Shown here: positions 4,318 to 55,680 of the stretch, one piece after another
How positions within the stretch are numbered: position 1 is the first letter of the stretch
Layout of the letters: each line of letters opens with the position of its first letter
Virus record (IMG/VR): IMGVR_UViG_3300027815_000006
Coordinates: 1-64,000 of that record
DNA length: 64,000 nucleotides
Source: a virus
Reading direction: 5' to 3' (one strand)
Notes under the pieces: generated by a model
What the model was told of the DNA's origin: nothing
Seen by the model: the letters and a program-made list of their open reading frames with translations, nothing else
Databases searched by the model: none
Made by a program: the position numbers and the translations under genes

Positions 4318-6702
4318 TCAGCTCTGCTTCCCGAAGACCACGAAGAAGAAACTCTCCGCCACGGTAGCGAGGTCAACCTGCACCCCTGCCGCGTCCCACA
4401 CCTTCACGGAGAACCCCGTACCCGCGGAAATCGTCGCCGTCGCCATGCGCGCCGCAAGGTTGAGCGGGGTGATGAGCGGCGCGAAGTTGGCGTCCGCCAT
4501 TCCGTTCACGAAGGTCACGCTCACCGTACCTCCCCCCGCAACCGTGGCTGACGCGATGTTGAAGCCGTCTACGATGGTCACCGCGCCAGGGCCCGCGCCA
4601 GTAGACGCCAAACGCCCCCACGCCTTCGGTACGTTGGATGCGTAGAGCGTGTTGCCGAGCTGTCCCCCATCGACGGGCGTGGGATTGCTCACCGCCGTAA
4701 CCGCGTTGAAGGAGAGCGGAGCGTCCCGGGACTGAAGCGCGGAGTTCGCGCCGCGCAGGACGGTGAACATATCCACCCAGGCGGCCTCCGCCCAGGAAGC
4801 CCCTCCGGGCCCGTACTGCACCTTCATCCGGTCCAGGAGGAGAACGAACCGGAACGCCGCGACGCCCGCATTGTCCGGCACCCAGTTGGTCCCGTCCCAG
4901 CGTGCGTTGATAGTCGTCTCCGAGCCTCGGGCGCTCCCGGCCTCGGGCGCGACGTAGGACCGTACGGTCCCGTCCCCGGAGGCATCCACAGCGTGCGTGT
5001 GCCCCGTGCGCATCGCCGCCACGGCATCGAAGAGGAATCGAGGCGTAGCCGCGAGCGCGGCGCTGGCGGCGAGTGCGGGGTTGTACCCCACGGTGAGCGC
5101 CCCGGACACCGCCGCGGCCAGCTCCCCAACCTGAAGATCGAGCACGGACCACAGATTGTCCGCCCAGGTCCCGTTGGCCGCAGCATCGCGGCTGCGATAC
5201 TGAAGGTACCCCGGAGTGCCCGCCCCGAGCGCGAGCATGTACGCCGCCTCGCCGTTCACATCCTTGGTCCACTGCACCGAGGCGTCCGAGAAGGCGTTGA
5301 GCGTGACGCGCAGCTCTGCGTGCGCTGGGGAGTTGTCCGCGATGTAGTACACCCGGAGGTGCTGACGCCCGACGCCCACCGTCTCCAAGAGGAGCGTGGG
5401 GGTACCTACGGTGGTGCGGACGGAGGGAGCAAGTCGCGCGAAGTTCACCGCGTCGGCGGCGGAGGTCATCCCGCTTCCGGAGAGAAGTCGCCCCGTAGAA
5501 CGGAGCGATGCGAAGACGGTGCCCAGTCTGTCCAGAAGCTCCAGGACCGTCTCCCCGGCCTGGGTGGTAACCTGCGCCCTGGGGGAGGAGACCGCATCCG
5601 CCCCCGTCGCGTCCACGAAGTCGAGCTGGTGCGTGGCCAGAGGAGCGTCCCCCGAGGTCCCCAGGGGCTCGTCCACCTGGAAGCGCCGCAGTTGCAGAAG
5701 ACGAAGGGAGTTCACCACCAAGGCCAGCCCCGCCGCGCCGAAATCGAGGCCGGTGTACACCAGCGCGACCTTCCAGAGCCGCGCGGCTGTCGCGGGAGGC
5801 GCGAAGGCTCCCGTGAGGGTGCGCGTGGACGCATCGGGGGCAGTGAGGTCCACGGTGAGGGTGGAGGTAGCGCCCACGTCTACCCCCGCAGCGTCCTTCC
5901 AGTGCAGCCGCAGGATGAAGGTACCCGCGGTGGCAGCCTGGATCGCCTTGAGCTTGAGCTCGTAGACGATCTGGAGCGCCTGCGAGATCGGCGCCCCCAC
6001 GCGCTGCTCGACCAGTCCGGTGCTCGCCGCCGCGGCGCGGGTGAAGCCGAGGTACTGGGCCTGCCCGGTGAGGAGGTGCGCCCCTGTGGTCCCCGGCGCC
6101 ACCGCCATGTCCCCCGCGGACTGAGAGCGCGCCCAGAAACGGGAGGACTGCTCGAAGGTCGGGTTCTTCGTGAGGAGCCGGAGACCCTGGAGTCCTTCAG
6201 GGGCTCGTTCGGCGGGGTAGGTGCGCTGCGCGTAGGAGAGCTGCGCGCTCGTAATCACGCCGCCCACAGGCACCGTGATCGTCCCGAGGACCACCAAGTA
6301 GGGCTTGTCCGCCGAGGCGTCGTACTGCGCCTGGGTGTAGACCCGCAGCTCCGCCGTGGTCACCGCACCGACGGAGTAGGTGGCGTACAAACAGAGCACC
6401 ACCGTCGTCCCGTCGTAGGAGACGGGAATCACCAGGGTGGAGGTGGCGAGGCGCCGGATGGTGATGAGGTACCCGTTGGAGGTCTGGTAGAGCGCTGTGG
6501 ATGCCCCCTCGGACCCTACGGTCACGTCCACCGTGTAGGGCGCCGCGTTCGCCGCGAGGAGGAGCCCCTGGTAGACCCCCGGAGCGAGGATCCCCACGTC
6601 CCGGCGGTTCAGGGCCTCGGTGACGAAGGTCTCCTGGAAGTTGATCGCACGCTCGGCAGTGCCGTAGGTAGAGAGCGTGGTCGGTGTGGCGGGCGGGGGC
6701 AT
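4318..6702 (-). CDS. tail fibre / receptor-binding protein
   Basis: 794 aa, Ala/Gly/Thr-rich; two similar internal modules (T-x-NA...W..D..G.AA); follows collar/baseplate genes. Confidence 0.65.
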   Translation of the reverse strand: MPPPATPTTLSTYGTAERAINFQETFVTEALNRRDVGILAPGVYQGLLLAANAAPYTVDVTVGSEGASTALYQTSNGYLITIRRLATSTLVIPVSYDGTTVVLCLYATYSVGAVTTAELRVYTQAQYDASADKPYLVVLGTITVPVGGVITSAQLSYAQRTYPAERAPEGLQGLRLLTKNPTFEQSSRFWARSQSAGDMAVAPGTTGAHLLTGQAQYLGFTRAAAASTGLVEQRVGAPISQALQIVYELKLKAIQAATAGTFILRLHWKDAAGVDVGATSTLTVDLTAPDASTRTLTGAFAPPATAARLWKVALVYTGLDFGAAGLALVVNSLRLLQLRRFQVDEPLGTSGDAPLATHQLDFVDATGADAVSSPRAQVTTQAGETVLELLDRLGTVFASLRSTGRLLSGSGMTSAADAVNFARLAPSVRTTVGTPTLLLETVGVGRQHLRVYYIADNSPAHAELRVTLNAFSDASVQWTKDVNGEAAYMLALGAGTPGYLQYRSRDAAANGTWADNLWSVLDLQVGELAAAVSGALTVGYNPALAASAALAATPRFLFDAVAAMRTGHTHAVDASGDGTVRSYVAPEAGSARGSETTINARWDGTNWVPDNAGVAAFRFVLLLDRMKVQYGPGGASWAEAAWVDMFTVLRGANSALQSRDAPLSFNAVTAVSNPTPVDGGQLGNTLYASNVPKAWGRLASTGAGPGAVTIVDGFNIASATVAGGGTVSVTFVNGMADANFAPLITPLNLAARMATATISAGTGFSVKVWDAAGVQVDLATVAESFFFVVFGKQS
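4957..4970. repeat. dispersed palindrome copy 4 (in frame, GTVRS)
   Basis: read directly. Confidence 0.97.
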
Positions 6703-6710
6703 CGGATCTC

Positions 6711-7295
6711 CTAGAACACCAAGAGCATGTTGAACTCACGCGCCGAGGCGGCGGTTTTTGGAACGGCCTCCGTGAGCGTACCATAGGCCCAGAGGAGCGC
6801 CTCGCCCGCGACCGTGGGGTGATCCCCGAAGACCCCGACCTCCCAGATTTCAGGACTCCGCCCGCTCCCCGCCGAGTCCTCGTTGAACTCCGCAGCCTCC
6901 AGACGGCACCGGATGTTCAGTCTGGAGGGCGCGACGAAGGAGAAGTCCCCGGAGGTGAGCGCCTTCTGGAAGTTCCCACGGGAGTAGGCCGCGTTCAGCG
7001 GGTTGCCCTCGTAGCGCTCAGGCTGTCCGGCGGCGAGGCGTGTCGTGTCCACCCGGGCGTCGATGTCCTGCACGCTGTTGTCGAAGCGCCGGAGGTTGGA
7101 GACGGGGAGGCGCTGCACCTTGGAGATCCCCGAGAGCTGCCAACCCCCCTCACCCACACGGAAAAACTTGATCCGCGGATCCCACGTCGAGGACCCGAGA
7201 ACCGTCGGGGTGCCCGGAACGTACGGAATCCCCCCGAGGAGCCGCGGAAGATAGATCCGCGCATCGTCCGTGATCTTGGCGAGGAGAAATGCCAT
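6711..7295 (-). CDS. tail collar / fibre-attachment protein
   Basis: FRVGEGG...EIWEVGVF...WAYGT...PKT pattern typical of tail-collar fibre proteins. Confidence 0.6.
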   Translation of the reverse strand: MAFLLAKITDDARIYLPRLLGGIPYVPGTPTVLGSSTWDPRIKFFRVGEGGWQLSGISKVQRLPVSNLRRFDNSVQDIDARVDTTRLAAGQPERYEGNPLNAAYSRGNFQKALTSGDFSFVAPSRLNIRCRLEAAEFNEDSAGSGRSPEIWEVGVFGDHPTVAGEALLWAYGTLTEAVPKTAASAREFNMLLVF

Positions 7296-7299
7296 GTCG

Positions 7300-9681
7300 T
7301 CAGCTCACCACCTCTAGCAGAGCTTCCCACGCGGTGTCCGCGGGGAGAAGGTCACCGGGAACGTCATCATAGTAGGCCGTGAAGGGCGCGTACAGCACAG
7401 GGATCGCCGGACCCTCCAGATACGCCTCCAACCCCGCGGAATCCCCGAAAAATGCCTCGAAGGTAGCCTCCAGAAGCACCAGGAGCCGCACGTGGATCGG
7501 GATGACCTCCTGGATCCGACGCAGAAGCCGCGGGACACGCTCGCCGCTCCCCACGGCAAGCTCCCCCAGATGCAGCGTCAGAAGCACGACGGCTACGGGC
7601 GCGAAGTACGAGACGGGGTTCAGGGGCGCGGTGTAGGTCAGGGTGCCCATACCCGCCGCAGGAGCAGTTGCAGCCCAGACCTCGACGGTCCACTCCCGGG
7701 GAGGCACCGAGATCACCAGGAGCGGTACCGTCTCCAGCCAGTAGGTCACGCCCCCCTTCACGAAAGCCCACCCCCCAACACCGCCGACCATCGCGGGTGC
7801 GTTACCACGCAGGCGAAGCCGGTACCTTGAACCAGACAAAAGCGTGCTGGAAAGAAGCTCGGTCGCCACGGAGGCGACGTACGCCGTCTCCCAGGAATAG
7901 GTGTCGAGCGGGGTGCCTGTCTGCAAGAACCACTCGTCCGGCACCACGTCATCGAAACGAGGCGCTGTGGGCTGAAGATCCGTGAACACCTCGGTGACAG
8001 CCCAGTCCCCCGTGAAGGGCACCGTAGGGAGAGCCGCGCGCGTCAGCGCCAGAGATGTCCCGGAGAGAACCTGAAGCTCGTAGAGCCCGTTGGCTTCCGG
8101 AATCGTAGCATTGGACACCCGCAGGAGCTTCGTGCTGTCCGCCCCCTTGAACACCCCCGTGCTCGCCGTGAGGATGAGTCTCCCCGCGCCTGGAGAGAAG
8201 CTCCCCGTCCCCGTGCGACCTGTAGTCACCTCGCGGAACTCGTACCGCCGTGCACTCGGAATCTTCGGGTAGAAATCCGCGCCCACCCGGCACAGCCCGA
8301 GAACGGTGACAGGAAGCCCCGTGAGTGCCCCGATGGTGGCGTACGCCTCCGAGGTGCCCTTCCGGGCCCGCCAGCGACGCAGCCCGTCCGCCCAGCCCCG
8401 CTGATAGGACTCCGCCTCCGTCGGGTCGAAAGGAAGCGCCATGTCTTCCGTGAGGTGCTGGAGCATCGCAGGGGGTCGCACCCGGACACGCGCGTCCGCG
8501 CGCCCGAGAGATGGCGCAGTGCGCAGCTCCCAGAGACACCCCGCTTGGAGCGCCAGCGGGGGCTCCGAGGCGAACACCGTCACCTCCGCCGTGTTCAACC
8601 CGAACACCCGCGTCACCGTGACACTACGCCGCTCCGGTCCGCCCAGTACGGGATAGATCTCCAGGAGACGCCCCACGTCGGCGCTCGTAAGCTGCGCACC
8701 GGGGAGCGTCACCGTCGCCGTCGCCCCGCCGCTCACCGAGGCACCCGTACCCCGCGCCAGAACAACCCCCCGAGGCGAAAGACTCCCCTTCACGCGCACC
8801 CGCGCCCGAGGGCGCTTGGCCCAGTAGACCCCCGTGGCGTTCGCGGGCACGAAGGCCGTAAGCGTCGCGGGGTCCAGGAGCTCTGCCGTGGTCGCCGTGA
8901 GCGCCCCCAGGAGGTACACCCCCTGGACCGTACGGTCCGAAGTACGTACGAAGATGCCTCGCCCGCGGTCCTCCGGCGCGAAGCTCCCGGTGATGTTCAG
9001 GAGCCCCGCGGCAAACGAACCCGTCCCGTCCGCGGGCACAATTCCGTCCTGCTCCCCTGGGTAGAACAGGTCGTACCCGAGGACCTCGTACCCGTTCTCT
9101 CCGTCCTCCAGGAGCCATCCGGGCCGAAGCGCAGACACGTCCCCCTCGGCATCAATGAGGACGCCTTCCCCCTCGCGGCTCGCATAGAGTCCCCACGCCA
9201 CAGGTCCGGCTTCGGGCTGGAGAATCGGATCCGTCACCAGGGTGGTGCCCGACAACACCGCTACCACCCGAAGAAACCCGTGATTTCCTGGCAGAGCCGA
9301 CGTCAACCGCAGGAGACTCCCACGGTCCTTCGCATCGAAGCGTCCCGAGGGCGCTTGGAACGTCCCGAGAGCGATCACCGCCCCATCCGCACCTCTCTGC
9401 TTGAGCTCCCCCGCCTCTGGGGTCGGCTCCCCGAGGAGGAGATACCTGTTCTCCGCGTGGTTGCTTCGCGCCGTGAAGGGATCTCGGAGTGACTCGAAGG
9501 CGTCGATGCGCAGCCGCGTGTCTCGAAGCTCCTCCGCCGTCGCCGTGAGATAGCCGCGAAGTAGCCCGTCCGCGTCGGTGTCCAGGTAGGTCTGCGGGAT
9601 GGTGTTGTGGAGAAGATCCACCTCCGCGGGCCACTCCCCGAAGTGCCCGTCCCCGAAGCTGTAGTCCCCAAACCCAGGCAT
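7300..9681 (-). CDS. baseplate wedge / tail protein (gpI-like core with inserted domains)
   Basis: LLHNTIPQTYLDTD..LRGYL, RKGTSEAY, IQEVIPIHV motifs; baseplate context. Confidence 0.65.
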   Translation of the reverse strand: MPGFGDYSFGDGHFGEWPAEVDLLHNTIPQTYLDTDADGLLRGYLTATAEELRDTRLRIDAFESLRDPFTARSNHAENRYLLLGEPTPEAGELKQRGADGAVIALGTFQAPSGRFDAKDRGSLLRLTSALPGNHGFLRVVAVLSGTTLVTDPILQPEAGPVAWGLYASREGEGVLIDAEGDVSALRPGWLLEDGENGYEVLGYDLFYPGEQDGIVPADGTGSFAAGLLNITGSFAPEDRGRGIFVRTSDRTVQGVYLLGALTATTAELLDPATLTAFVPANATGVYWAKRPRARVRVKGSLSPRGVVLARGTGASVSGGATATVTLPGAQLTSADVGRLLEIYPVLGGPERRSVTVTRVFGLNTAEVTVFASEPPLALQAGCLWELRTAPSLGRADARVRVRPPAMLQHLTEDMALPFDPTEAESYQRGWADGLRRWRARKGTSEAYATIGALTGLPVTVLGLCRVGADFYPKIPSARRYEFREVTTGRTGTGSFSPGAGRLILTASTGVFKGADSTKLLRVSNATIPEANGLYELQVLSGTSLALTRAALPTVPFTGDWAVTEVFTDLQPTAPRFDDVVPDEWFLQTGTPLDTYSWETAYVASVATELLSSTLLSGSRYRLRLRGNAPAMVGGVGGWAFVKGGVTYWLETVPLLVISVPPREWTVEVWAATAPAAGMGTLTYTAPLNPVSYFAPVAVVLLTLHLGELAVGSGERVPRLLRRIQEVIPIHVRLLVLLEATFEAFFGDSAGLEAYLEGPAIPVLYAPFTAYYDDVPGDLLPADTAWEALLEVVS
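8925..8938. repeat. dispersed palindrome copy 5 (in frame, SDRTVQ)
   Basis: read directly. Confidence 0.97.
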
Positions 9682-9683
9682 CG

Positions 9684-10886: not shown

Positions 10887-10887
10887 G

Positions 10888-11736: not shown

Positions 11737-12466
11737 GGGGGACCTCCGATGTTCGGTCGATCCGCACCCGCGCAAGGCGATGCGTGTGCAGGAAATCGTA
11801 GACGATGCGGTAGGGCAGTCCTTCAGCCCCCTGGAAAAAAGCCTGTGTCGGAAGATTTCGCAGGAGAAGAACCCACCACTCCGCGTGGCGTCGCGCGCTC
11901 CAGGTCATGCGGTAGTAGGGCCACCCGAGGAACTGCGCCCGAAAGAACTCCCTGGAGCTCGCCACGGGTTCCAGAGAGCCGGACAGCCAGTAGAGCATCG
12001 CCGCACTCATGGCGTACCCCCGGCGCTCCCAGCGCGCCCGAAACGGCGCGGGGAGGGGGAGAAGGAACAGGAGCGCGAGGAGGGACAGGAGAAACTCCAG
12101 CCGCCAGAAGGCCAGGACCGCGAGGAGCGCCCCCAGCGCGAGCACCTGCGGAAACACATACCCAAGGGAGAAGAGGACCCCCACGCGCTTTCGGTCCGCG
12201 ATGTGAACCGCCTCGTGCGCGAGGATCTCCAGCAGCGTCTGCGCCGGAGTCTGCGCCCGCCATGCCGGGGAGGGAAGATAGACCCGCGACCCGAGCGTGG
12301 TGATGTAGCTGTCCATGAAGCCCCTGTTGAAGAACAGGAACGTGCCCAGCACACGCATCCCCCAGGACTCGGACTTGTACCGGAGCTCCATCGGGATGCC
12401 GTGAGCGCGCAGATACGCCACGAAGGCGTTGATCGTGGTGGTGGTGATGGGGGCCTGGAGCGACAT
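11729..12466 (-). CDS. membrane protein with HExxH zincin motif
   Basis: ITTLG..Y, LAHEAVHIAD, hydrophobic hairpin, WERRGY third-ligand motif. Confidence 0.7.
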   Translation of the reverse strand: MSLQAPITTTTINAFVAYLRAHGIPMELRYKSESWGMRVLGTFLFFNRGFMDSYITTLGSRVYLPSPAWRAQTPAQTLLEILAHEAVHIADRKRVGVLFSLGYVFPQVLALGALLAVLAFWRLEFLLSLLALLFLLPLPAPFRARWERRGYAMSAAMLYWLSGSLEPVASSREFFRAQFLGWPYYRMTWSARRHAEWWVLLLRNLPTQAFFQGAEGLPYRIVYDFLHTHRLARVRIDRTSEVPRA

Positions 12467-12972
12467 TACGGAAACACCGTAACACGCGGAAGGACCCGTA
12501 GCAGCGAAGGACGCACCAGGACGTACCGCTCCCCCGTCGGAAGCTGCGCCCAGAAGTCGTAGACGTAATCCCCCTCTGGGAGCTTCTCCGTGTCCGCGGG
12601 CAAGAGCGTCACCTTCGCCACCCCCAGCCTCGGATTCGAGGAAGGATAGGTGATGCCCGGAGAAACCCCGTCGGTGGTCTTCAGCACCAGGACCGTACGG
12701 TCCGACACGTCCCCCTTGACGCTGAACACCAGCCTGGAGCCCGTAAGATCGAAGATCTTCCCAGCCTCGTCCGTCACGGTGACGGTGTAGGTCTGTGTAG
12801 CCCCGCGTACTACCTCGATCCCATTGCGCGCTTGTAGCAGGTTGGTGGTGCTCATGGGCCCCTCGATGCGCGCCAGGAGATGAAACGCGGGCTGGACTGC
12901 CCCCTGAAGCCCCTCACCGGCCTGCGCCACCACGATGAGGTCCGCGGAGGATACGACGGCATCAAGCAACAT
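12466..12972 (-). CDS. BppU-like baseplate/Ig-fold protein (alternative start 12855)
   Basis: RGATQTYTVTVTD..FDLTG..FSVK..LLPADT..YVYD pattern. Confidence 0.65.
   Translation of the reverse strand: MLLDAVVSSADLIVVAQAGEGLQGAVQPAFHLLARIEGPMSTTNLLQARNGIEVVRGATQTYTVTVTDEAGKIFDLTGSRLVFSVKGDVSDRTVLVLKTTDGVSPGITYPSSNPRLGVAKVTLLPADTEKLPEGDYVYDFWAQLPTGERYVLVRPSLLRVLPRVTVFP
12690..12703. repeat. dispersed palindrome copy 6 (in frame, SDRTVL)
   Basis: read directly. Confidence 0.97.
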
Positions 12973-15604: not shown

Positions 15605-16489
15605 TCACGGGACCTTGACCCCCGGAGAGAGGAGCGAAGGGGTGGGTGGTATCGTCGGAGGCCCTGTGTTCGGCGTCCCCGTCGGGTGGGTATGCGTGGC
15701 GAGCCACTGCACGAGGGAATCCCCCCGCGGGACGGGGTGGTTACCCCCGTTCCCGAGGATTACGGAGGAAGCCGCCACCTCCACCGTGGGCGCGGTGAGC
15801 TTCACGGCCTGCGGGGAGGTGACCTCCACCTTTCCCCTGGAAAGCGAGACCTTGGTACCCCCAGGGTGCTCGATGAGCACCGTCTCCGCCGTCACGTCCA
15901 CCCGGACCTTGTAGCCGCCGAACACCGATAGCTGGAAGCTGCCGTCGGGATCGAAGGCGATTTTGGAGGTCTTCCCTGTGGCGCGGTCGGCGGACTTCTT
16001 CGGGTCCGTACGGTAAGCATCTCCTGGATCCGAGGCGTGCCATGTGAGCGACACCCGCTCGCCCCCCACCGTATCGTCGAAGAGGAGCGCGTGCCCCCCG
16101 CGGGTCACAAAGCCCCGCCGCCTCGGGACGGGGCTACCGCGCTGCGTGGTGTCGTAGGCGAACTCCGCGGGGAGTGCGTTCCGGGTGTGCCAGCCCCCCA
16201 GCCAGATCGAAGGGTTGTCCACGTCCCCGTTCTCGAAGCCCACCCGTACAAGATCCCCCATCTCGGGCGGCCAGAACAGGCCGCGGCCCTGGGAAGCCCC
16301 GAGGAAGGCCGGATCCACCCAGACCGTGAGGGGACGCTGCTGTCCAGCGCCAGGGATGAGCACCTGCACCCTCCCGCGCATTTCCGGATCCGCCGTGGAG
16401 GTCACCTCCCCCCGGTAGACCGCGTAGTACCGGGAGGCCGTGGTCTCCAGCCCGAAGATGCGCGTCCGACGGACGAACTCCGCGACCAC
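15605..16489 (-). CDS. baseplate spike gp5/gpV-like (OB-fold)
   Basis: YRGEVT..DPE.RGRVQV, G.FWPPE.GD.V.VGFENGD, C-terminal THTH metal-binding tip. Confidence 0.9.
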   Translation of the reverse strand: MVAEFVRRTRIFGLETTASRYYAVYRGEVTSTADPEMRGRVQVLIPGAGQQRPLTVWVDPAFLGASQGRGLFWPPEMGDLVRVGFENGDVDNPSIWLGGWHTRNALPAEFAYDTTQRGSPVPRRRGFVTRGGHALLFDDTVGGERVSLTWHASDPGDAYRTDPKKSADRATGKTSKIAFDPDGSFQLSVFGGYKVRVDVTAETVLIEHPGGTKVSLSRGKVEVTSPQAVKLTAPTVEVAASSVILGNGGNHPVPRGDSLVQWLATHTHPTGTPNTGPPTIPPTPSLLSPGVKVP

Positions 16490-17868
16490 TAGAGTCCCCC
16501 GAAAAGCCCGCCCGCGGAGGGCGAAACGTCCACAAGGTCATCTCCCAGAAGCGCCGTAACCCGAGGGGACGCCGCCCCGATGTTGGCAAGGCCGAGCGCC
16601 TGGACAGCGCGCTCCAGTACCCTGTCCACCTGACTGACCATGGTTAGTCGTGTTGTAGCCCCGCCCCCAACGGTGTGCGTCACATCGAAGATGAGGTACT
16701 CCCCCGTCAGCTTCGCGCCCAGCCCTTGTACGGTCACGACCTCCCCGGGCATGATGTCGGGGATACCGATGGATTCGATCTCCAGCTTGATCCCCTCGAT
16801 GGACTGCCGCGCCTCCCACTCTGCGTGGGCCTGAGCCTCCGAACGCGCGTTGGCCGCATCTCCCGGTAGGAACTGGGGCCCTTGGGTATTGTCCGCACTG
16901 GGACCGGGCGCGGTGTTCGAGGGCGCCTGCGCCAAAGTGGTCCTCCCCGTCCGCGAAGGTCGGACCGTACGGTCCGATACCTCGGCGGGCGTAACCGCCC
17001 CCGTTCCGCTGTCAATGCTTCTCCGCTGCGTGCCCAGCGTCGGCGGCGTCGACAGGTAGACTCCCAGGGTGGGACTGGAGGCGGACAGGATCGGATAGAC
17101 GTTCCGGCTCCCGCCCATACGCCCCTCGGGAAAGTACCCCAGCGCGAAGGTGCGTCTGGGGCGGACCGTAGCGCTGATACTCATGGGGAGCACCTTGAGC
17201 GCGGCCCCCACGATCACGAAGTAACACCGGGCCTCCCAGAGGAGCTGCGTGATAATCTGCCAGTCCGTCCGCGGCCCTTGTGAGAAGCCCAACACGTCGT
17301 GAAAAAGAGCACGGTACGCCACGGAGCCGGGTCCCTCCAGGCGCACATCCCGGTCGTCTAGCTTGAGAGGGGATGGATGCGCGGGATCGGGACCACGAAG
17401 AAGCTCCGCGACAATCTCCGCGCGGGAGCCCGCCAGCGTACGAAGGCCCCCGGTGGTGTTGTAACTGAAGCGCGGAATCCCCTGCGCGTTCAAGGTCACG
17501 GACACCTCCTCCCCGAGCTGCACCTCCGGCTTCAGGATGAGGCCCTGAAACGGCTGGGAGAGGATGGCTTGTGCGGGAGAAGAATTCTTGTACCCGAACT
17601 GCACCTCCAGCATGGATTGACTCGCCCAGTCCATGATGGGGCTGTCCAGGAGCGCCAACGCATCCCCGTAGGGAGGCGTGATCTGCGCCGTGATGATCGG
17701 GACGTTGCCCAGGTTGAGCTTGACCGTGACCTCTGAAAGGAAGGGCCTGTCTTGGTGACGCCCACCCGGAGACGCCTGCGCATCCAGCCAGAAGGGGAAG
17801 CGGTCCCCGTCGCGCGTACGAATGACCGCGGACAGGAACACTCCGGAGGCGTCGTAGTTCACAGGCAC
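16489..17868 (-). CDS. baseplate hub (gp27 / late control D-like)
   Basis: EVQFGY, Q..RTDWQII, IGIPDIMPG.VV.V.GLG.KL.GEY.I.DVTH. Confidence 0.85.
   Translation of the reverse strand: MPVNYDASGVFLSAVIRTRDGDRFPFWLDAQASPGGRHQDRPFLSEVTVKLNLGNVPIITAQITPPYGDALALLDSPIMDWASQSMLEVQFGYKNSSPAQAILSQPFQGLILKPEVQLGEEVSVTLNAQGIPRFSYNTTGGLRTLAGSRAEIVAELLRGPDPAHPSPLKLDDRDVRLEGPGSVAYRALFHDVLGFSQGPRTDWQIITQLLWEARCYFVIVGAALKVLPMSISATVRPRRTFALGYFPEGRMGGSRNVYPILSASSPTLGVYLSTPPTLGTQRRSIDSGTGAVTPAEVSDRTVRPSRTGRTTLAQAPSNTAPGPSADNTQGPQFLPGDAANARSEAQAHAEWEARQSIEGIKLEIESIGIPDIMPGEVVTVQGLGAKLTGEYLIFDVTHTVGGGATTRLTMVSQVDRVLERAVQALGLANIGAASPRVTALLGDDLVDVSPSAGGLFGGL
16962..16975. repeat. dispersed palindrome copy 7 (in frame, SDRTVR; 18-bp perfect)
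   Basis: read directly. Confidence 0.97.
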
Positions 17869-22990: not shown

Positions 22991-23004
22991 GGACCGTACG
23001 GTCC
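22991..23004. repeat. dispersed palindrome copy 8 (between chaperone stop and tape-measure SD)
   Basis: read directly. Confidence 0.97.
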
Positions 23005-25188: not shown

Positions 25189-25267
25189 CTTTCCGGGAGG
25201 CCATGTTGCCTCCGTGAGGAAGAACATAGCAACGCTATTCGCATTGGCAAGAGGCCGCTGTACGATT
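25189..25267 (-). promoter_or_regulatory. repeated promoter/leader cassette, copy 3
   Basis: AATCGTACAG-N7-TTGCCA-N16-TATGTT then GGAGGC-AACATG-GCCTCC hairpin; matches 39862-39925 and 39996-40059. Confidence 0.8.
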
Positions 25268-25294: not shown

Positions 25295-25498
25295 TTAGGC
25301 CCGTTTACGGAAGCGTTTGCGCTTCCGGCGGGGGCGCTCGATGTGGACCGTACGGTCCGAAGGGTCCTCGGAGCCCTCGGGCGGGAGGGGGAGGGTGGGC
25401 AGGGGACCTCCGAGGGGTTGGACGTAGGGGCCCACCATGGCTGCGAGGACCTCCTCGGTGAGGCGCTGGAGTTTTCGCCACGGGGACGGCGGAGTCAC
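25295..25498 (-). CDS. small hypothetical protein with basic C-terminus
   Basis: GTGA overlap with upstream tube-like gene; GGAGG SD. Confidence 0.55.
   Translation of the reverse strand: MTPPSPWRKLQRLTEEVLAAMVGPYVQPLGGPLPTLPLPPEGSEDPSDRTVHIERPRRKRKRFRKRA
25345..25358. repeat. dispersed palindrome copy 9 (in frame, SDRTVH)
   Basis: read directly. Confidence 0.97.
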
Positions 25499-31540: not shown

Positions 31541-32335
31541 TCATGGGCGCCGAAGAAGGCGCCGTTGAAACAGACGATACCTCTGAACTGACCGCAAGGG
31601 TACCAGAACCATTTTTCCTGGCCACCGCTGCCACTTGTAGAAGGTGGAATCCGTCAAGGCCCTGTGGAACTCCCGCCGCCGCCAGAGCTGTCGCACCCTG
31701 GACCGTACGGTCCGAAGGGTGGGGAGCCACAGAGGCCGCGCCTGCGTCGCCTTGGATCCGAACTCCATACGAAGCACCTGGAACGCCAAGTCCTCTACAA
31801 CCCGGAGCCCCTCGGAGGGCCTGGGCATCGGCAATCGCACCCCAGCCTGAGACAACGCCGTGCGCCACGCCGTCGCGTCTGCCGCCCGGAGACGCCGTAC
31901 CCCCGCCACCTCATCCCGCGTCACCGTCCGATACACCACCCGCGCCGCCCCCCTCGGGGGCTGAACAGGAAGCACATCGGTGGGCCAGGGAGAATACTGA
32001 CGGAGAATGTCAATCACCTTCGATGGAGGCTGCCCCTTACGAGGCCGGACGTAGACGACCTGACTGGCCGTGTCGAGTTCCAGGAGCCGTTTTCGGAGAG
32101 GTTCCCCCCTGAGAACGATGGCGAAAGCCTCTCCGGGGCGGAACTTCGTACGCGCAAGAGACAGCCTGGAGGCGTAGGAGGCGTCCATAGCGTCCGCCCC
32201 CTCTTGGAGGCGCTGGAGCGCGTCCCGCGCGAGGATCTCCAGGGCGCGAGCCTGAAGATGCTGCACCCGGAGGGTGAGCTCCTTGGCGACCTTGAAGACC
32301 CGCTGGTTATTCTTGAGGGGCTGGATCTCCCACAC
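31541..32335 (-). CDS. hypothetical basic protein (possible neck/tail completion)
   Basis: 264 aa ORF in neck region; RPLWLP motif. Confidence 0.55.
   Translation of the reverse strand: MWEIQPLKNNQRVFKVAKELTLRVQHLQARALEILARDALQRLQEGADAMDASYASRLSLARTKFRPGEAFAIVLRGEPLRKRLLELDTASQVVYVRPRKGQPPSKVIDILRQYSPWPTDVLPVQPPRGAARVVYRTVTRDEVAGVRRLRAADATAWRTALSQAGVRLPMPRPSEGLRVVEDLAFQVLRMEFGSKATQARPLWLPTLRTVRSRVRQLWRRREFHRALTDSTFYKWQRWPGKMVLVPLRSVQRYRLFQRRLLRRP
31700..31713. repeat. dispersed palindrome copy 10 (in frame, RTVRS)
   Basis: read directly. Confidence 0.97.
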
Positions 32336-34572: not shown

Positions 34573-34581
34573 GGAAACAGC

Positions 34582-35256
34582 CTACGCCAGCGATTCTCCC
34601 GTGTCATCCCCCGAGGGGTCGGAACCTACCGTGGGAGTCGCTTCGGAGGCGGGCGGGGGTACCGGAGCCCCGAGAGCTCCGGCCCGCTGACGCAGCTCGG
34701 CGGCCTGAGCCTCCAGCGCCGCGGCCTGCCGATACAAAAAACCTCGCAGATCCTCGCCCTGCTCGCTGAGTACCCCCTGCGCCCGATGCGTCGCCTGTGG
34801 GGCCCCGCGGACAGCTTCGGACCGTACGGTCCGAGGTCGCGGGGGAGGAGAGAATACAGGCTCGTCCTCCGCATCCTCATCTTCGGCGGACGACGAGGAC
34901 GAGGGTGCGGTGTTCGTCCGCAGTGTCGCGGCGAAATTGAATCCCCCCTTCGGAATAGAAGCGCGCACCCCCGGAGCACGGGCTTCTGGAGCCTGGGCCC
35001 CCGACGCGCGACCCTCCGTCACAGGCCGGGAGGGTGTCTCCGCGAACCCTCCCCCGAAATCGTCCTGCCCGTAGGGGTCCCTCTCCAGGGGCTCTACCTT
35101 GGAGAGGATGGCGTCCAGATCCATCCCCCGCGAAGACGATGCGCGCCGTACGGGCTGCCTGGACTCCTGGGTAGGAGAGGACTCCGCGCGGCGGTGAGGC
35201 CAGTCCTGCGTCCCGCCCCGCTTCAGAAGTGCTCGAAGCTCATCCGTTTTTCCCAT
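34582..35256 (-). CDS. low-complexity/disordered hypothetical protein
   Basis: start ATG 35256 is 7 nt after TGG-TATGGT -10. Confidence 0.6.
   Translation of the reverse strand: MGKTDELRALLKRGGTQDWPHRRAESSPTQESRQPVRRASSSRGMDLDAILSKVEPLERDPYGQDDFGGGFAETPSRPVTEGRASGAQAPEARAPGVRASIPKGGFNFAATLRTNTAPSSSSSAEDEDAEDEPVFSPPPRPRTVRSEAVRGAPQATHRAQGVLSEQGEDLRGFLYRQAAALEAQAAELRQRAGALGAPVPPPASEATPTVGSDPSGDDTGESLA
34819..34832. repeat. dispersed palindrome copy 11 (in frame, RTVRS; 18-bp perfect)
   Basis: read directly. Confidence 0.97.
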
Positions 35257-35289
35257 GAGAGATACCATACCACACTTCGAGGAGCGCGG

Positions 35290-35865
35290 TCAGAAGTAGG
35301 TGGTCGAGAGATACCACTGACACGGAAAACCAGCGCCTCTGACGCGCACCACGACCTTCCACTGCCCGGACACCAACGCCACGTCCAGCACCGCCGTCCA
35401 CGGAAGCGTACCGTGGAGCACAGACACCATAATATCCCCCGAAACAGAGGGATTAGACGCGCCGTTACGGGCGACGATGGCGGACAGCTCCCACGCCTGC
35501 GCCTGGGAGAGGTCTGTTCTACGGGCCTTCACGCGCACGCGCATGAGGAGGGTGGCGTCCGGCGTGACCTCGATGCCTGTGTCTGCGACCACCTCTTCAG
35601 AAGCCAGGGTAGTCGCATAGGCGAGCTGGATCGGCTCGGGCTGCGCGTACTCCCTTGGAGAGCCGGAGGCGATGGGAAGCTCCAGGAGGGAGTCCGGGCT
35701 GTCCCCTGGCTGCGCCTTGAACAAAAGGCGCGAAAACGCGGTGCCCTGCTGCTCCAGAATGAAGAGCCCCAGCGGCAAACCACCCACCCCGCCCACCTGG
35801 GAGGTGAGGGTCACCACCTGCCCGCGCGTCATCACCGCGATCTTGTGTTCCCGCGAGGCGACCAT
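35290..35865 (-). CDS. hypothetical protein whose C-terminal domain resembles the C-terminus of fibre 36027..37592
   Basis: manual alignment of C-terminal ~100 aa. Confidence 0.6.
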   Translation of the reverse strand: MVASREHKIAVMTRGQVVTLTSQVGGVGGLPLGLFILEQQGTAFSRLLFKAQPGDSPDSLLELPIASGSPREYAQPEPIQLAYATTLASEEVVADTGIEVTPDATLLMRVRVKARRTDLSQAQAWELSAIVARNGASNPSVSGDIMVSVLHGTLPWTAVLDVALVSGQWKVVVRVRGAGFPCQWYLSTTYF

Positions 35866-37669: not shown

Positions 37670-38185
37670 ATGTCCCAACCCAAGACCCTCCACCACATCC
37701 TCGGTACCGTCTCCAACGCCCTGAGCGACGGCTTGGAGTTCGACGCCACAGCCCTCACCACCTGGGGTCACGACCTCGGGGTCATGGTGGGCGCGCTGGA
37801 AGCGCAACAGCTCGAAGGCGTGACGAAGCTCCGCGCGGAGAACGAACAGCTCCGGGCGCAGATCGAGAGCATCCGCACGCAGATCGCGCGCAACGACGCG
37901 CAGATCGCCGTGTGCGAAGGCGCGAAGCTCGCGTGTGGGGAGGTGTATCGCTTCATGCGCGAGAGCCTGGACGCCACGGTGTTCAAGGTCCGCACCCTGC
38001 GCCCCGCACAGCAGCCCGCGACGGTCATCGCCCCGCCCCCCGTGCCCGTCCATCCCGGCGCCCTGCGCGTACTGGACATCGGCGCCACGGAGGACGCCAA
38101 CGGCGCTGCTTCCGAGAGCCCCCCCGAACCCGAACCCGCTGAATCCACGGACTCCCCCAGGAAGAGGGCGAAGAGGCCGTCCTAG
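37670..38185 (+). CDS. coiled-coil hypothetical protein
   Basis: heptad region KLRAENEQLRAQIESIRTQI; TTGACC-N18-CATAGT upstream. Confidence 0.7.
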   Translation: MSQPKTLHHILGTVSNALSDGLEFDATALTTWGHDLGVMVGALEAQQLEGVTKLRAENEQLRAQIESIRTQIARNDAQIAVCEGAKLACGEVYRFMRESLDATVFKVRTLRPAQQPATVIAPPPVPVHPGALRVLDIGATEDANGAASESPPEPEPAESTDSPRKRAKRPS

Positions 38186-38586
38186 CGCGGAGGCGTCTGC
38201 TTGACTCCCTCGGGATGCTCCGCACACCAGTGCTCCCCGAGGAAGGTCACGCCCCCCGGCAGGAAGGACAGCGTGGCCACGGCCTGCGCGACCTTCACGA
38301 AGGCGGCGGCACTCTCCCCGCGCTTCCCGCGGTAGAGGAACACGTCCCCCTTGGAGGCGATGTAGGACGCCAGCTCCGGGGCCGACTCCTGGAGAGCGCT
38401 CCAGGGAAGACTACGTAGACGCCCCTGCTCGATGAGCACGGCGGTGTACAGGAGGCCACGCGCCAGCTCCAGCGTGAGCGCCATGGCCCCTTCCGCGGTA
38501 AACGGAGGACCACCCCCGCCGCACCGAGGACACCGGACCGTACGGTCCGAGGACACGGACTCCGATGCGGAGGGGGTGTCAGCCAT
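38182..38586 (-). CDS. hypothetical protein
   Basis: ORF with CPRC and GD.FLY..PGGVTFLG motifs. Confidence 0.7.
   Translation of the reverse strand: MADTPSASESVSSDRTVRCPRCGGGGPPFTAEGAMALTLELARGLLYTAVLIEQGRLRSLPWSALQESAPELASYIASKGDVFLYRGKRGESAAAFVKVAQAVATLSFLPGGVTFLGEHWCAEHPEGVKQTPPR
38535..38548. repeat. dispersed palindrome copy 12 (in frame, SDRTVR)
   Basis: read directly. Confidence 0.97.
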
Positions 38587-39861: not shown

Positions 39862-39925
39862 TCCTTCCGCGGAGGCTTCGTTGCCTCCGTGAACAACAAC
39901 ATAGCAACGCTTTTGCGATTGGCAA
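39862..39925 (-). promoter_or_regulatory. repeated promoter/leader cassette, copy 1 (left arm of 64-bp inverted repeat)
   Basis: TTGCCA-N16-TATGTT with TG extension + CGGAGGC-AACGAA-GCCTCCG hairpin + GAAGGA SD. Confidence 0.85.
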
Positions 39926-39995: not shown

Positions 39996-40059
39996 TTGCC
40001 AATGCCTAAAGCGTTGCTATGTTGTTGCTCACGGGGGCAACGAAGCCTCCGCGGAAGGA
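39996..40059 (+). promoter_or_regulatory. repeated promoter/leader cassette, copy 2 (right arm)
   Basis: 59/64 identical to reverse complement of 39862-39925. Confidence 0.85.
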
Positions 40060-41128: not shown

Positions 41129-41142
41129 GGACCATACGGTCC
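41129..41142. repeat. 1-mismatch palindrome variant GGACCATACGGTCC (intergenic)
   Basis: read directly. Confidence 0.85.
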
Positions 41143-41188: not shown

Positions 41189-41680
41189 ATGAATCCCGAA
41201 GACCTGGAGAAGCTCAAGCAAACCGTCGATGTGCTGGCGCGCGTCTTCACGGCCATGGCGAACTCCCGGGCTCACCAGCTCGCCGCGGCCTCCCTCCATC
41301 TCCAGCACCACGCCCGAACCCTCCTGACCCCCGGAACGCCGCGCGCCGTCGTCACCCGCGCCACGGTCGCCAACCTCTTCGGCGCCGCGGCCTTCCTCCT
41401 CGAACTCCCCGACGAAGACGCTACCTGGGAGGCCGTTTCCGGAGAAGCCGCGGCGCTCCAGGAAACCCTGAAGTCCTCCGTCGAGGAAGCCGCGGCGCTG
41501 GGCCTGGAAGACTTCCCCTTCCACGCCGCCCTCAGTCGCACGACCGCACACCTTGCCCTGGCGGGCTTCCTCCCCCCGCACCTCCCCGAGGATATGTCCA
41601 TGGAGGCGCGACACCGAGAGCTCCGAGCTGCCCTCCCGCCCCTCGCGCTCCTGTTCACCCTCGCCCAGGAACCCCCGTGA
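41189..41680 (+). CDS. hypothetical helical protein
   Basis: 163-aa ORF. Confidence 0.6.
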   Translation: MNPEDLEKLKQTVDVLARVFTAMANSRAHQLAAASLHLQHHARTLLTPGTPRAVVTRATVANLFGAAAFLLELPDEDATWEAVSGEAAALQETLKSSVEEAAALGLEDFPFHAALSRTTAHLALAGFLPPHLPEDMSMEARHRELRAALPPLALLFTLAQEPP

Positions 41681-41714: not shown

Positions 41715-41728
41715 GGACCGTACGGTCC
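41715..41728. repeat. dispersed palindrome copy 13 (between convergent genes; 20-bp perfect 41712-41731)
   Basis: read directly. Confidence 0.97.
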
Positions 41729-41736: not shown

Positions 41737-42189
41737 CTACAGGGTGCCCTTGAGCCACGCCTGGAGCCCGTCCCGGACAGCCTTGTAGGCTTCCTCGGGC
41801 GTCTTCCCCTCGGTGCCCACCTTGAAGTCCCGGAGCTGCGTCGCATTGGTGACCCCAGTGGGGCTGCGCTCCATGGTGCTTCCGTCCACGCGGCCATCGA
41901 TGAGCCACAGCTCCGCGTACCCGAAACCCTCCGGGTCCGGCTTCGAGCCCGAGTAGTCCGCAGGCCGCTCCCCCCACCGGATGTAAAACTGCCGCCGGAA
42001 GGACTGCTTCCCGGTCCCCCTGGAGGTCATCTTCACCGCCGTGGGCTTCGGGTTCAGCTCCTTCTTGAGGCGCGGAAGGAGTTTGGCCAGTGCGCCGTTG
42101 AACTCGTCCGCAGAGCCGGGGGCCGCTTCCTCCCACAGATGACGCCCGGAACACGCCCCGGCACAGTCAGAGTTCCAACACGCACGCAA
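41737..42189 (-). CDS. hypothetical protein (start uncertain)
   Basis: C-terminal part of ORF 41737..42498 is protein-like; its N-terminal part overlaps the LAGLIDADG gene. Confidence 0.5.
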   Translation of the reverse strand: MRACWNSDCAGACSGRHLWEEAAPGSADEFNGALAKLLPRLKKELNPKPTAVKMTSRGTGKQSFRRQFYIRWGERPADYSGSKPDPEGFGYAELWLIDGRVDGSTMERSPTGVTNATQLRDFKVGTEGKTPEEAYKAVRDGLQAWLKGTL

Positions 42190-43474
42190 CCCCACCCGAC
42201 GAACGCCTAGTCCGCGCGTAGCAGGCGTCACACTGTCCCTTCCGGAACGCGGGCCTGCCGCAAGCGCAGACCCCCGAAGAGTGCCGCTGATACTTGGGGT
42301 CCGCCCGCCGCTCCGCGGAGAGACATGTGCCGCACTTCCCCCGCGCCTGCACGGGATTCCCCCGCCCGCAGGGACAGACCGTACCTTCCCCGGTCCTCCG
42401 CGGCCTGGAAGCGTAGAAGCACGCCACGCAGAATCCCTTCTTCTTCGCCTCCGCCCCGCACGGACAACGCGCAGGAGCGACAGAGGGCGCGAGCACAACA
42501 GGCGCTACAGGCTCCTGCCCCCGCAGAGGCCTCCCGCGCCGCTGGCGCTCGTAGCACGCATCACAGAGGCCCTTGCGGTAGGCTGTGGCCCCGCACTGAC
42601 ACGCCCCCTGCACAGGCCGCCGATACCCCGGCTGGTGAATGCGCTCGGCGGAGAGGCAGGACCCACACAGCCCCTTCGCCCACACCTCCCGTGTGCAGCC
42701 CTCCGTCCCGCACACCGTCCCAGGCCCCGTCGTGTGTGTCTGCGTCGCCTCCCAGCACGCCCGACAGAGCCCCGACGCGGTGTACCTCGGGTTCCCGCAG
42801 GCGCAGGGTGTTTCCACGGCCTCCTGGAGCGCGCACATCTCGTGATAGCCCCCCATCCGATCTTCATTCCGGATGTGCTCGGGCGCGTCCTTGTAGAGCC
42901 AGTCCGCGAACTTCTGTGCGAGCGCCCCCGTGTAGGAAAGCTGAACCCGAACGTTCCCCGACTGGGGAACCACCGTCCGGTTGAGCTTCGGAACTGGGAT
43001 CCCAAGCGCCTTCTCGATCTCCAACCCCAGGCGCTCCACGAAGGGCACGGCAATGGAGGTGTAGACCAAGGACCGCTGCTTGTTCCCCCGCGTCCTGGTC
43101 TTCTGGACGTAAATGCACCCGTCTGAGTCCCAGAGCCCCCGAATGAAGTGCGGTAGACACGCCTTCGGAAGATCCTCCGGCCACCGGAGCTTGTCTGACT
43201 TCTTCCCCCTGTACCCGTGGACCTGGAGCATCCAGTCAGACAGCGCCCGGGACCGCACAACCGCCACGAAGGCCCCCGGCGCGTGTTTGTGCTCGTAGAA
43301 CGGGCGAGTGTCGTCCGTGATGAGTGCCCGCCACCGCGTGATGGTGGAGATAGCACCCGTGCACTGGAGAAGATACCCCGAAGAGGGAGCACACCCGTCG
43401 CCCAAGAAGATGCCGTGCCACCACGCCCGCTCGGGAGACCACGTTTGTAGGAGCTTCCAGTTGATGTTTGCCAT
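42167..43474 (-). CDS. double-motif LAGLIDADG endonuclease-like protein with six C-terminal Cys4 zinc-finger repeats
   Basis: WHGIFLGDGC and FIRGLWDSDGC; repeats CxCG....KGxCxxC. Confidence 0.85.
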   Translation of the reverse strand: MANINWKLLQTWSPERAWWHGIFLGDGCAPSSGYLLQCTGAISTITRWRALITDDTRPFYEHKHAPGAFVAVVRSRALSDWMLQVHGYRGKKSDKLRWPEDLPKACLPHFIRGLWDSDGCIYVQKTRTRGNKQRSLVYTSIAVPFVERLGLEIEKALGIPVPKLNRTVVPQSGNVRVQLSYTGALAQKFADWLYKDAPEHIRNEDRMGGYHEMCALQEAVETPCACGNPRYTASGLCRACWEATQTHTTGPGTVCGTEGCTREVWAKGLCGSCLSAERIHQPGYRRPVQGACQCGATAYRKGLCDACYERQRRGRPLRGQEPVAPVVLAPSVAPARCPCGAEAKKKGFCVACFYASRPRRTGEGTVCPCGRGNPVQARGKCGTCLSAERRADPKYQRHSSGVCACGRPAFRKGQCDACYARTRRSSGGVACVLEL

Positions 43475-43525: not shown

Positions 43526-43526
43526 T

Positions 43527-47945: not shown

Positions 47946-47959
47946 GGACCGTACGGTCC
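47946..47959. repeat. dispersed palindrome copy 14 (intergenic, downstream of portal)
   Basis: read directly. Confidence 0.97.
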
Positions 47960-47996
47960 AGTGTCTCGAAACCCGTACAGCGGTTCCGATGGACTC

Positions 47997-52575: not shown

Positions 52576-52594
52576 ACCGAAACCATAGCAGACA

Positions 52595-53386: not shown

Positions 53387-53388
53387 CC

Positions 53389-53402
53389 GGACCGTACGGT
53401 CC
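53389..53402. repeat. dispersed palindrome copy 15 (between polymerase stop and amidase)
   Basis: read directly. Confidence 0.97.
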
Positions 53403-53416
53403 AGTCCGAAGGAAGC

Positions 53417-55252: not shown

Positions 55253-55290
55253 GCTCGAATCCTACAGCCCCCGCCGCCCCCCGCAAGCCG

Positions 55291-55680
55291 TCAGAGAAGA
55301 GACTGGACCGTACGGTCCAGTGCGGGCCGAAGGGCATCCCTGAGTACGGTCACCAGCTCCTCATCATCTTCGGCCATTTCCTGCCAGAAGAGGAGCCACG
55401 GATGATCCTCCACCTCGCGCTCCATGAGCGCGTGCGTCGCCGGAACGAACAGGAAGTCCTCTCCCCCGCCCCTGGGATGCACCACATGGCGGTCATGCCC
55501 GAGGTCCTCGTAGCGTCCGATGGCCCCGAACCCGTCGTAGAACGTGTTGGCGTAGAGACGAAGCTGCACCTCGTCATCCTCCCCACCCCCCATGGGGGGC
55601 ACGAACACGTCCCGGAGCATACAGAAGGCCGTCGCTCCCCCAGGAAGCCGCGCGTAATAGGGTGTCTCGGGCGTCAGCAT
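55291..55680 (-). CDS. hypothetical protein
   Basis: 129-aa ORF coupled to giant gene. Confidence 0.7.
   Translation of the reverse strand: MLTPETPYYARLPGGATAFCMLRDVFVPPMGGGEDDEVQLRLYANTFYDGFGAIGRYEDLGHDRHVVHPRGGGEDFLFVPATHALMEREVEDHPWLLFWQEMAEDDEELVTVLRDALRPALDRTVQSLL
55305..55318. repeat. dispersed palindrome copy 16 (in frame LDRTVQ; 20-bp perfect 55302-55321)
   Basis: read directly. Confidence 0.97.

Follow-up and report, generated by a model that had tools for sequence, protein, structure and literature searches.

Noc of Bacillus subtilis, a paralogue of ParB, has about 70 scattered 14-bp palindromic NBS sites, and KorB acts, with KorA and IncC, on 12 OB operators (13 bp) of the IncP plasmid RK2. 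Among other dispersed short sites, the stoperators of cluster A mycobacteriophages are asymmetric, oriented with transcription, and bound by the immunity repressor, and HIP1 (GCGATCGC) is an 8-bp word with thousands of copies, a property of the cyanobacterial host genome. Here, we report an array of a 14-bp perfect palindrome, GGACCGTACGGTCC, in the first 64 kb (the window; 64,000 nucleotides of IMG/VR record IMGVR_UViG_3300027815_000006) of a 92,388-bp virus contig (G000; G+C content, 66.7%), and a ParB-like protein, encoded on the same contig outside the window, that may read it. G000 is an uncultured myovirus and has no near relative among cultured phages (megablast against these gave no match). 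A 14.4-kb IMG/VR contig (G002, locus L054) overlaps its last 133 bases (92256-92388) at 99.2% identity and therefore continues the genome, adding 14.3 kb, so the 92,388-bp record is incomplete. Taken as a whole, a palindrome array with a ParB/Noc-like reader is the best explanation that we can offer, and a reasonably probable one. Its first part, that the palindrome is a protein-binding site maintained by substitution, seems to us highly likely; on its second, that the phage's own orphan ParB/Noc/KorB-like protein is the predicted reader, our confidence is evenly balanced.

With Noc and its NBS sites, the phage array has in common a candidate protein of the ParB fold (matched structures, 7nfu, 7ol9, and 7ng0), a perfectly palindromic 14-bp site built around a pyrimidine-purine (YR) step, sites that are replicon-wide and often within genes, and the lack of a dedicated ParA partner (a family listing covering 100 proteins of G000 and G002 included no ParA). 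It differs in belonging to a lytic-looking phage genome with an approximately 10-fold higher site density and even spacing; the candidate also has no recognisable Noc membrane helix, and its C-terminal domain is a different one. The likeness to KorB lies in a ParB-family protein and dispersed palindromes on a mobile replicon (structures 8qa8 and 8qa9 were matched), some operators standing beside −35 boxes and others far from promoters, the same mix as here and in a distant relative, G003. However, RK2 has 12 sites, against 23 here plus four new copies on G002, and the RK2 sites are neither evenly spaced nor written into coding frames at this rate. ParB/parS systems, including actinobacteriophage parABS, share the ParB_N domain, a GxxRxxA-type box, and a palindromic site, but parS clusters near parAB, whereas here the sites are genome-wide and the first Arg of GERRxRA is replaced. 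Stoperators and the phiC31 inverted repeats likewise comprise tens of short sites, mostly at gene boundaries, with one phage protein as the reader; the sites described here are, in contrast, symmetric, evenly spaced, and often deep inside genes. HIP1 shares over-representation of a palindrome via substitution and its tolerance in coding sequence, but the phage site is 14 to 16 bp long, phage-lineage-specific, intergenic-enriched, and evenly spaced. Both components, a ParB-family protein and a palindromic site, belong to a known kind, and it is the arrangement that is probably novel, with tens of evenly placed sites in a lytic-type phage, in frame in genes, and a motif that shifts between lineages. 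No description of such arrays was found in open-access papers and bioRxiv, a scope outside which most subscription journals lie, and the paper on the Rhodobacter phages discussed below makes no mention of palindromes or ParB.

Number, placement, and origin of the copies

Genes were called with a codon model trained on the contig itself, which assigns 93% of the contig to genes, nearly all of them on the minus strand. Exact copies of the palindrome number 16 within the window and 23 over the whole contig, where 0.001 to 0.003 are expected (Markov orders 0 to 3), and G002 carries four new exact copies plus one that repeats the copy at 92340. Only two near copies occur in the window, one with two mismatches within the tail-fibre gene (6511..6524, GGACCCTACGGTCA) and one with a single mismatch (41129..41142, GGACCATACGGTCC); a shuffled window gave 0.58 matches at ≤2 mismatches. 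A pyrimidine precedes and a purine follows in 48 of 54 half-sites (P = 3e-9), so the unit is effectively a 16-bp palindrome, strictly YGGACCGTACGGTCCR. The shorter cores CCGTACGG (27 times in the contig) and ACCGTACGGT (24 times) represent essentially the full sites alone. Outside the window, a partial copy with changed outer bases (ACCGTACGGTCC, contig 87206-87217) lies in gene 87152..88105, and a centre variant (GGACCGCACGGTCC, contig 78843-78856) stands 8 nt before the stop of an N6/N4 DNA methylase gene.

The placement of the copies is far from random. Twelve of the 23 are not wholly within a gene, while noncoding DNA makes up 6.7% of the contig (P = 5e-8), and nine of 23 remain so under liberal gene calls (P = 3e-5). 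Intergenic copies are mostly 3 to 37 nt past a stop codon, and some copies are 10 to 23 nt upstream of promoter-like sites. Spacing is about 4 kb, with a coefficient of variation (CV) of 0.55 versus 0.94 for random placement (P = 0.0017).

An earlier note on this DNA had proposed that the in-gene copies arose by substitution, not as an insertion, under selection at the DNA level, and the comparison with relatives bears this out. Codon-level alignments were made against orthologues from two distant syntenic relatives, G001 (G+C content, 52.7%) and G003 (70.7%; 148 kb, 187 of 191 genes on one strand), whose amino acid identity to G000 is 30 to 58% over structural and replication genes. Columns were ungapped in five of the six alignable cases, including SDRTVL at 12690 against LDPLPL and DDPRPF, SDRTVR at 16962 against DDSTVR of G003 (same columns), R-TVRS at 31700 against E-TVRK of G001, and LDRTVQ against LKAKAT. 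Several relatives already have part of the peptide (DDSTVR, ETVRK) or of the DNA word. No target-site duplications or repeated flanks were seen. In the phage proteome, DRTV occurs nine times and TVRS five times, where composition predicts fewer than one each. Eight of the nine DRTV and all five TVRS peptides are written in the exact codons of the palindrome (codon usage probability, 0.012 and 0.005 per peptide), including CGT and GTA, which are rare here (8.1 and 5.9 per 1,000). Neither a peptide conserved with free synonymous variation nor a signature of insertion was found. The in-gene copies therefore arose by substitution, with selection acting on the DNA and not on the peptide. A homologue search with the baseplate protein gave a best identity of 41% and no close relatives for a synonymous-site test; an identical baseplate protein occurs on a second contig.

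Both relatives carry lineage-specific motifs of the same 6+YR+6 design. That of G001, GGWCCGYRCGGWCC, has 17 matches at ≤2 mismatches (0 for a reversed control), and one of its copies lies 24 nt 3′ of the portal gene, a semi-conserved position, as G000 has a copy 3′ of its portal gene at 47946. That of G003, GAGYCAYRTGRCTC, has 27 copies, of which 12 are intergenic, with a CV of 0.51 (P = 1.5e-4). C/T variants of the G003 arms occur independently of each other (5/8/7/7 observed versus 5.3/8.3/6.7/6.7 expected, by hand tally), and the asymmetric form is present six times in each orientation. Such independence of the half-sites indicates a dimeric protein that binds double-stranded DNA, not a hairpin. 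On the sense strand of G003 (loci L058-L065), the centre of the intergenic copies is CA in nine, TG in two, and TA in one, and that of the in-gene copies is TG in 12 and CA in three; codon constraints may explain this, and an orientation effect is possible.

The ParB-like protein and arrays in cultured phages

A Pfam tally of 100 proteins of G000 and G002 contained few DNA-binding families. Two DNA-binding candidates were mapped, both outside the window, namely, a protein with a MerR-type helix-turn-helix (HTH; 71117-71962, minus strand) and a ParB_N protein (66336-67184, minus strand). The latter, the ParB-like protein, matches Pfam ParB_N at an E value of 1e-8, its box GGEYRWRAA aligns to AGERRWRAV of Noc, and its sequence is closest to Noc and ParB. 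At least 348 representative sequences make up its family, and 80 of 80 sampled members match ParB_N alone. A homologue search with the protein gave three matches only (identities, 100%, 53%, and 40%); an identical protein is on record in a 156,402-bp contig, and looking in viral contigs for loci related via the baseplate protein or the ParB-like alignment yielded nothing new. An AlphaFold model (predicted local distance difference test score, 85.9) has Noc, ParB, and KorB as its best structural matches (Foldseek probability, 1.0; VIA Z, 13 to 16). Its N-domain superposes on ParB at 1.6 Å over 93 residues (Z, 15.5), and the match to KorB (8qa9_A; 133 residues, 2.3 Å, Z 13.5) extends into the DNA-binding domain, residues 127 to 170 of the model aligning with the start of that domain in KorB (8qa9_A) and in parS-bound ParB (6t1f_B). 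Given the long start codon, which the N-terminus of the G003 orthologue weakly supports, the palindrome at 67152 forms codons 7 to 11 of the ParB-like gene itself. A TAGGCT box lies 7 nt upstream of the long ATG.

Full-length homologues of the ParB-like protein occur in cultured phages, and eleven cultured phage genomes were searched for repeated inverted repeats. Arrays were found in Stenotrophomonas phage DLP_5 (TGCAAT-YR-ATTGCA; 35 copies; CV, 0.46), Vibrio phage PG28 (TGCAAT-YR-ATTGCA; 33 copies; CV, 0.37), Agrobacterium phage JP1 (TGCAAA-YR-TTTGCA; 33 copies; CV, 0.55), Rhodobacter phages RcTiptonus (TRCAATCGATTGYA; 35 copies; CV, 0.74) and RcZahn (TGCAAT-type; 8 to 18 copies; CV, 0.66 to 0.71), and Rhizobium phage RHph_Y1_11 (TGCAA-N4-TTGCA; 15 copies; CV, 0.60, without a random-placement test). 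Compared with random placement, spacing was even in PG28, DLP_5, and JP1 (P ≤ 3e-4) and in RcTiptonus (P = 0.04) and borderline in RcZahn (CV, 0.66; P = 0.06). In RcTiptonus, RcZahn, and RHph_Y1_11, the sites are split between junctions and coding sequence, with significant intergenic enrichment. One copy lies approximately 720 to 730 nt into the ParB-like gene itself in DLP_5 (70675-70688) and in RHph_Y1_11 (77405-77418).

Array and ParB-like family thus occur together in eight lineages (G000, G003, RcTiptonus, RcZahn, RHph_Y1_11, DLP_5, PG28, and JP1). The ParB-like gene is the sole nonenzymatic gene of G000 that is common to the array-bearing cultured phages, and among the genes common to them, it alone has a fold suggesting sequence-specific binding of double-stranded DNA. 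Vibrio phage SIO-2, whose replication and packaging core is common with PG28 (32 kb of tblastx matches), has six sites only, and no ParB-like homologue was detected in it. In Maribacter phage Colly_1, the gene and the array are both absent.

Several observations weigh against this protein as the reader. The match to the ParB HTH is partial, full-length matches to Noc have root mean square deviations of 9 to 10 Å, and no Pfam family covers the C-terminal half of the protein. The first Arg of the canonical GERRxRA box is Tyr or His, which makes the use of CTP uncertain. G003, RcTiptonus, and JP1 are without a copy at their own ParB-like genes, and no ParB-like gene was found in the 54%-complete fragment of G001, although the motif is present there. 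SIO-2 (loci L332-L335) keeps its six PG28-type palindromes, far above chance, without the gene; these could be relics after gene loss or could be read by another protein. Arthrobacter phages KellEzio and DanielleIgnace and Rhizobium phage RHEph10 encode the family, and in them the array is absent or weak; the ParB-like family is not sufficient for an array. TerL, PolA, a RecA-like protein, a helicase, a primase, and DnaB are also common to the array phages, so the phyletic signal is confounded by ancestry; the contrast of SIO-2 with PG28 separates the ParB-like gene from this core, yet independent lineages are few. The half-site TGCAA is common to phages whose ParB-like proteins are only 22 to 30% identical, for which a conserved host factor could be the cause, and a comparison of specificity-linked residues among the ParB-like proteins gave no informative signal.

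Other explanations for the array

The alternative that survives best, though we think it unlikely, is that the palindrome is a dispersed operator for a different regulator, either another phage protein (e.g., the MerR-type HTH protein) or a host transcription factor that is titrated or recruited, and that it regulates genes or terminates transcription as a roadblock where operons end, in a way comparable with stoperators and the phiC31 inverted repeats. Such a role would suit the many copies that stand just 3′ of stops and 10 to 23 nt upstream of promoter-like sites (425, 47946, 55305, and G002:7873), the copy at 22991 in front of the tape-measure gene, between a −10-like box and the ribosome-binding site, and several G003 copies 4 to 8 nt upstream of a −35 box. 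However, half of the sites are deep within genes, even spacing is unexpected for gene-specific operators, and only two to four sites are adjacent to the approximately 35 conserved promoters of G003, at no fixed distance. As to which regulator this might be, the MerR-HTH gene has an orthologue in G003 and a copy of the palindrome 22 nt 3′ of its stop, but its homologues occur in G003 and PG28 and not in RcTiptonus, RHph_Y1_11, DLP_5, or JP1. A host factor would fit the TGCAA half-site common to phages of different hosts, and the core of the 33-copy JP1 palindrome (GCAAACGTTTGC; loci L356-L360) presumably resembles a LacI/PurR-type operator, a likeness that suggests titration of a host repressor. 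For the G000/G001/G003 lineage, a conserved host factor is made less likely by the difference in motif among related phages.

Approximately 30 near-identical promoters (TTGAC-N17-18, ending in ATGCGCTAGRTT) were seen in G003 (loci L058-L065), almost all in its first 90 kb and largely independent of the palindrome array. A fixed promoter module was rejected as the identity of the site, since most promoters have no adjacent palindrome and the distances vary. A stoperator-type site was also rejected, the palindrome being perfect and the asymmetric form in G003 being equally frequent in both orientations; within the 92 + 14 kb covered, neither a repressor nor an integrase was identified.

That the element acts as a nucleic acid hairpin, be it an RNA stem-loop (terminator, processing site, or stabiliser) or a DNA cruciform, is improbable. 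The perfect symmetry, the many copies directly after stop codons, and the extra flanking complementarity at some intergenic copies (e.g., 1331 and 41715) would agree with it, but the stem has 5 bp and a 4-nt loop (−7.1 kcal/mol), no U-tract follows, all 14 bases are invariant without covariation, and copies within genes equal those between genes both in exactness and in the pairing of their flanks. A hairpin would require arms that covary and a preferred strand; the arms of G003 vary independently, C·A mismatches included, and in both orientations relative to transcription, so this explanation was rejected. An intrinsic terminator was likewise discarded, as neither a stable G+C-rich stem with a U-tract nor a conserved structure was found.

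The earlier note had likened the palindrome to HIP1, an analogy that fits poorly with a site of 14 to 16 bp with Y/R flanks, its intergenic enrichment, its even spacing, and its shifts between related phages. As an explanation, a hyper-represented word that is driven by the bias of a methyltransferase or of repair, or was copied from a motif abundant in the host, and has no dedicated binder, is very improbable. It would share with our data the origin by substitution under DNA-level pressure, the GTAC and CGTACG cores within the motif, and the N6/N4 DNA methylase encoded by the phage, with the centre-variant copy at its 3′ end. A specificity of 14 to 16 bp is nevertheless far above that of methylase or repair words, the shorter cores are not enriched independently, and the methylase has no orthologue in G001 and G003, which have arrays of their own; mutational bias should give neither even spacing nor intergenic enrichment. 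Pattern scans of bacterial genomes and metagenomes gave single chance hits and no dense carrier among the matches listed.

That the palindrome was left behind by, or is targeted by, a mobile element or homing endonuclease and multiplied through insertion or gene conversion is extremely improbable; despite the exact copies with almost no degenerate versions and two LAGLIDADG genes (one free-standing by the capsid gene and one in a helicase intein), there are no indels against orthologues at five of six in-gene sites, no target-site duplications, and no conservation beyond the motif other than the Y/R flanks, a 14-bp insertion cannot stay in frame, and comparable arrays occur in phages without an evident link to such elements.

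Sites in the window and the proposed role of the array

By profile matches, the window encodes a tail fibre, baseplate wedge, tape measure, sheath, T4-type major head protein, prohead protease, portal, large terminase, family-A DNA polymerase, and a 2,915-aa protein, and the contig beyond it encodes RecA, an intein-bearing helicase, a primase, DnaB, a DNA methylase, and UDG. Seven of the exact copies are at gene boundaries. The copy at 425..438 lies between genes, 4 nt past the stop codon of 443..1009(−) and 19 nt upstream of a promoter-like TTGCGC-N16-TACGCT; 1331..1344 abuts or overlaps the stop codon of gene 1344..1694(−); and 3881..3894 lies between convergent genes, 3 nt 3′ of the stop of 3898..4305(−). 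The intergenic copy at 22991..23004 is 10 nt upstream of the tape-measure start and directly 5′ of its ribosome-binding site, and 41715..41728 lies between the convergent genes 41189..41680(+) and 41737..42195(−). Downstream of the portal gene, 47946..47959 is 37 nt 3′ of the stop, intergenic, and 23 nt upstream of a promoter-like TTGACA-N18-TAGCGT, and the intergenic copy at 53389..53402 is 14 nt 3′ of the DNA polymerase I stop.

For the remaining nine copies, which the earlier note had placed inside coding sequences, all nine coordinates are exact and the peptide readings are right, but by the codon model only six are in convincing genes. These are 4957..4970 in the tail-fibre gene 4318..6702(−), which reads G-TVRS (amino acids 578 to 582); 8925..8938 in gene 7300..9681(−), which reads S-DRTV-Q (amino acids 248 to 253); 12690..12703 in gene 12466..12972(−), which reads S-DRTV-L; 16962..16975 in the tail gene 16489..17868(−), which reads S-DRTV-R; 31700..31713 in gene 31541..32335(−), which reads R-TVRS; and 55305..55318 in gene 55291..55680(−), which reads L-DRTV-Q, 14 nt before the stop and 18 nt upstream of a promoter-like site ahead of polA. 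The other three are in doubtful open reading frames (ORFs). The copy at 25345..25358 reads S-DRTV-H in a 67-aa ORF, 25295..25498(−), with a coding score of 1.1, and 34819..34832 would read R-TVRS in a weak ORF, 34582..35268(−), with 0.01 per codon. The copy at 38535..38548 reads DRTV at the N-terminal end of ORF 38182..38586(−), in an extension whose coding score is negative, so this copy is probably in a 5′ leader or intergenic.

The note had also held that the palindrome is confined to two of its three frames, with no GPYGP reading in a real gene, and that it avoids the most conserved genes. A GPYGP copy exists outside the window, at contig 76989, in the primase gene, where it falls in the linker that joins the zinc ribbon to the Toprim domain. 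The palindrome is the same on both strands and has three translations only; multiplying phage codon frequencies across each reading gives expected shares of 5.4% for GPYGP, 67.9% for xDRTVx, and 26.7% for xTVRS. Observed counts in this order were 1/6/3 for solid genes of the contig and 1/10/5 when doubtful ORFs and G002 were added, and neither departs from the codon model (chi-square P = 0.77 and P = 0.90); against a uniform split, the liberal count gave P = 0.02 and the solid count P = 0.15, which is not significant. Codon cost therefore leads one to expect the two-frame pattern, without a separate rule. No copy was found in the capsid, portal, terminase, protease, sheath, tape-measure, or polymerase genes, as the note had said, but their avoidance is not significant. 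The eight genes named in the note make up about 28% of the coding DNA of the window (our own estimate), and six to nine sites would miss them with P of about 0.05 to 0.14. Local identity to orthologues in the two distant relatives was 0.14 at in-gene sites versus 0.17 at random codons (P = 0.33), a test that also gave no significant signal for the suggested placement in tolerant loops. For annotation, the caution is that frame patterns of in-gene DNA motifs are easily over-read, as codon usage alone suffices here.

Other features of the contig were noted beside the sites. A free-standing LAGLIDADG-type gene (window 42167-43474, minus strand) adjoins the major head gene and has a 50%-identical orthologue in G003, and the helicase (contig 71994-74372, minus strand) contains an intein with Hint and LAGLIDADG domains. 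A stretch of approximately 1 kb (window 34222-35290), which includes the copy at 34819, has no convincing gene by the codon model and could hold an atypical gene or a noncoding RNA. A highly conserved promoter-like module (TTGCCAAT...GCGTTGCTATGTT) has five copies (window 25223-25250, 39898-39925, and 39996-40023; contig 87129-87156; L054 9402-9429), two of which are back to back and divergent at approximately 39.9 to 40.0 kb.

We propose that the palindrome acts in cis as the recognition site of a protein that binds double-stranded DNA sequence-specifically as a dimer. DNA-level selection keeps the sites roughly even, approximately 4 kb apart, genome-wide. Where a short intergenic gap is available, the site would be placed there, usually just 3′ of a stop codon; where there is none, point substitutions would write it into coding sequence at places where peptide and codons are already near one of its translations, and the frames would therefore follow codon usage (DRTV > TVRS >> GPYGP). 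In the manner of Noc at NBS sites and KorB at OB operators, the ParB-like protein would be loaded or anchored along the phage DNA by the array, presumably as a dimer bound to its sites, and the outcome may be genome marking, organisation, or long-range silencing, through coating or tethering of the chromosome. A physical role along the whole chromosome accounts for even spacing more readily than gene-specific regulation does, especially in PG28, which has the lowest CV.

More tentatively, and with considerable doubt, the arrays may represent a widespread and so far undescribed genome-marking system, in which an orphan ParB/Noc-like protein loads at lineage-specific palindromes of 14 to 16 bp every 2.5 to 5 kb and coats or tethers the chromosome. 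If so, marking could let the phage tell self from non-self, shield its DNA from host nucleases or defence systems, compact it, or make packaging selective, and the in-frame writing into genes would be the evolutionary cost of even spacing. The system would be present in cultured phages of Vibrio, Stenotrophomonas, Agrobacterium, Rhodobacter, and Rhizobium and so be directly testable, with SIO-2, which has no ParB-like gene, as a natural contrast at the bench to PG28, DLP_5, JP1, and the RcF cluster. It would mean that lytic phages use partition-family proteins to organise or mark the whole chromosome and that the need for evenly spaced sites overrides codon preference in their genes.

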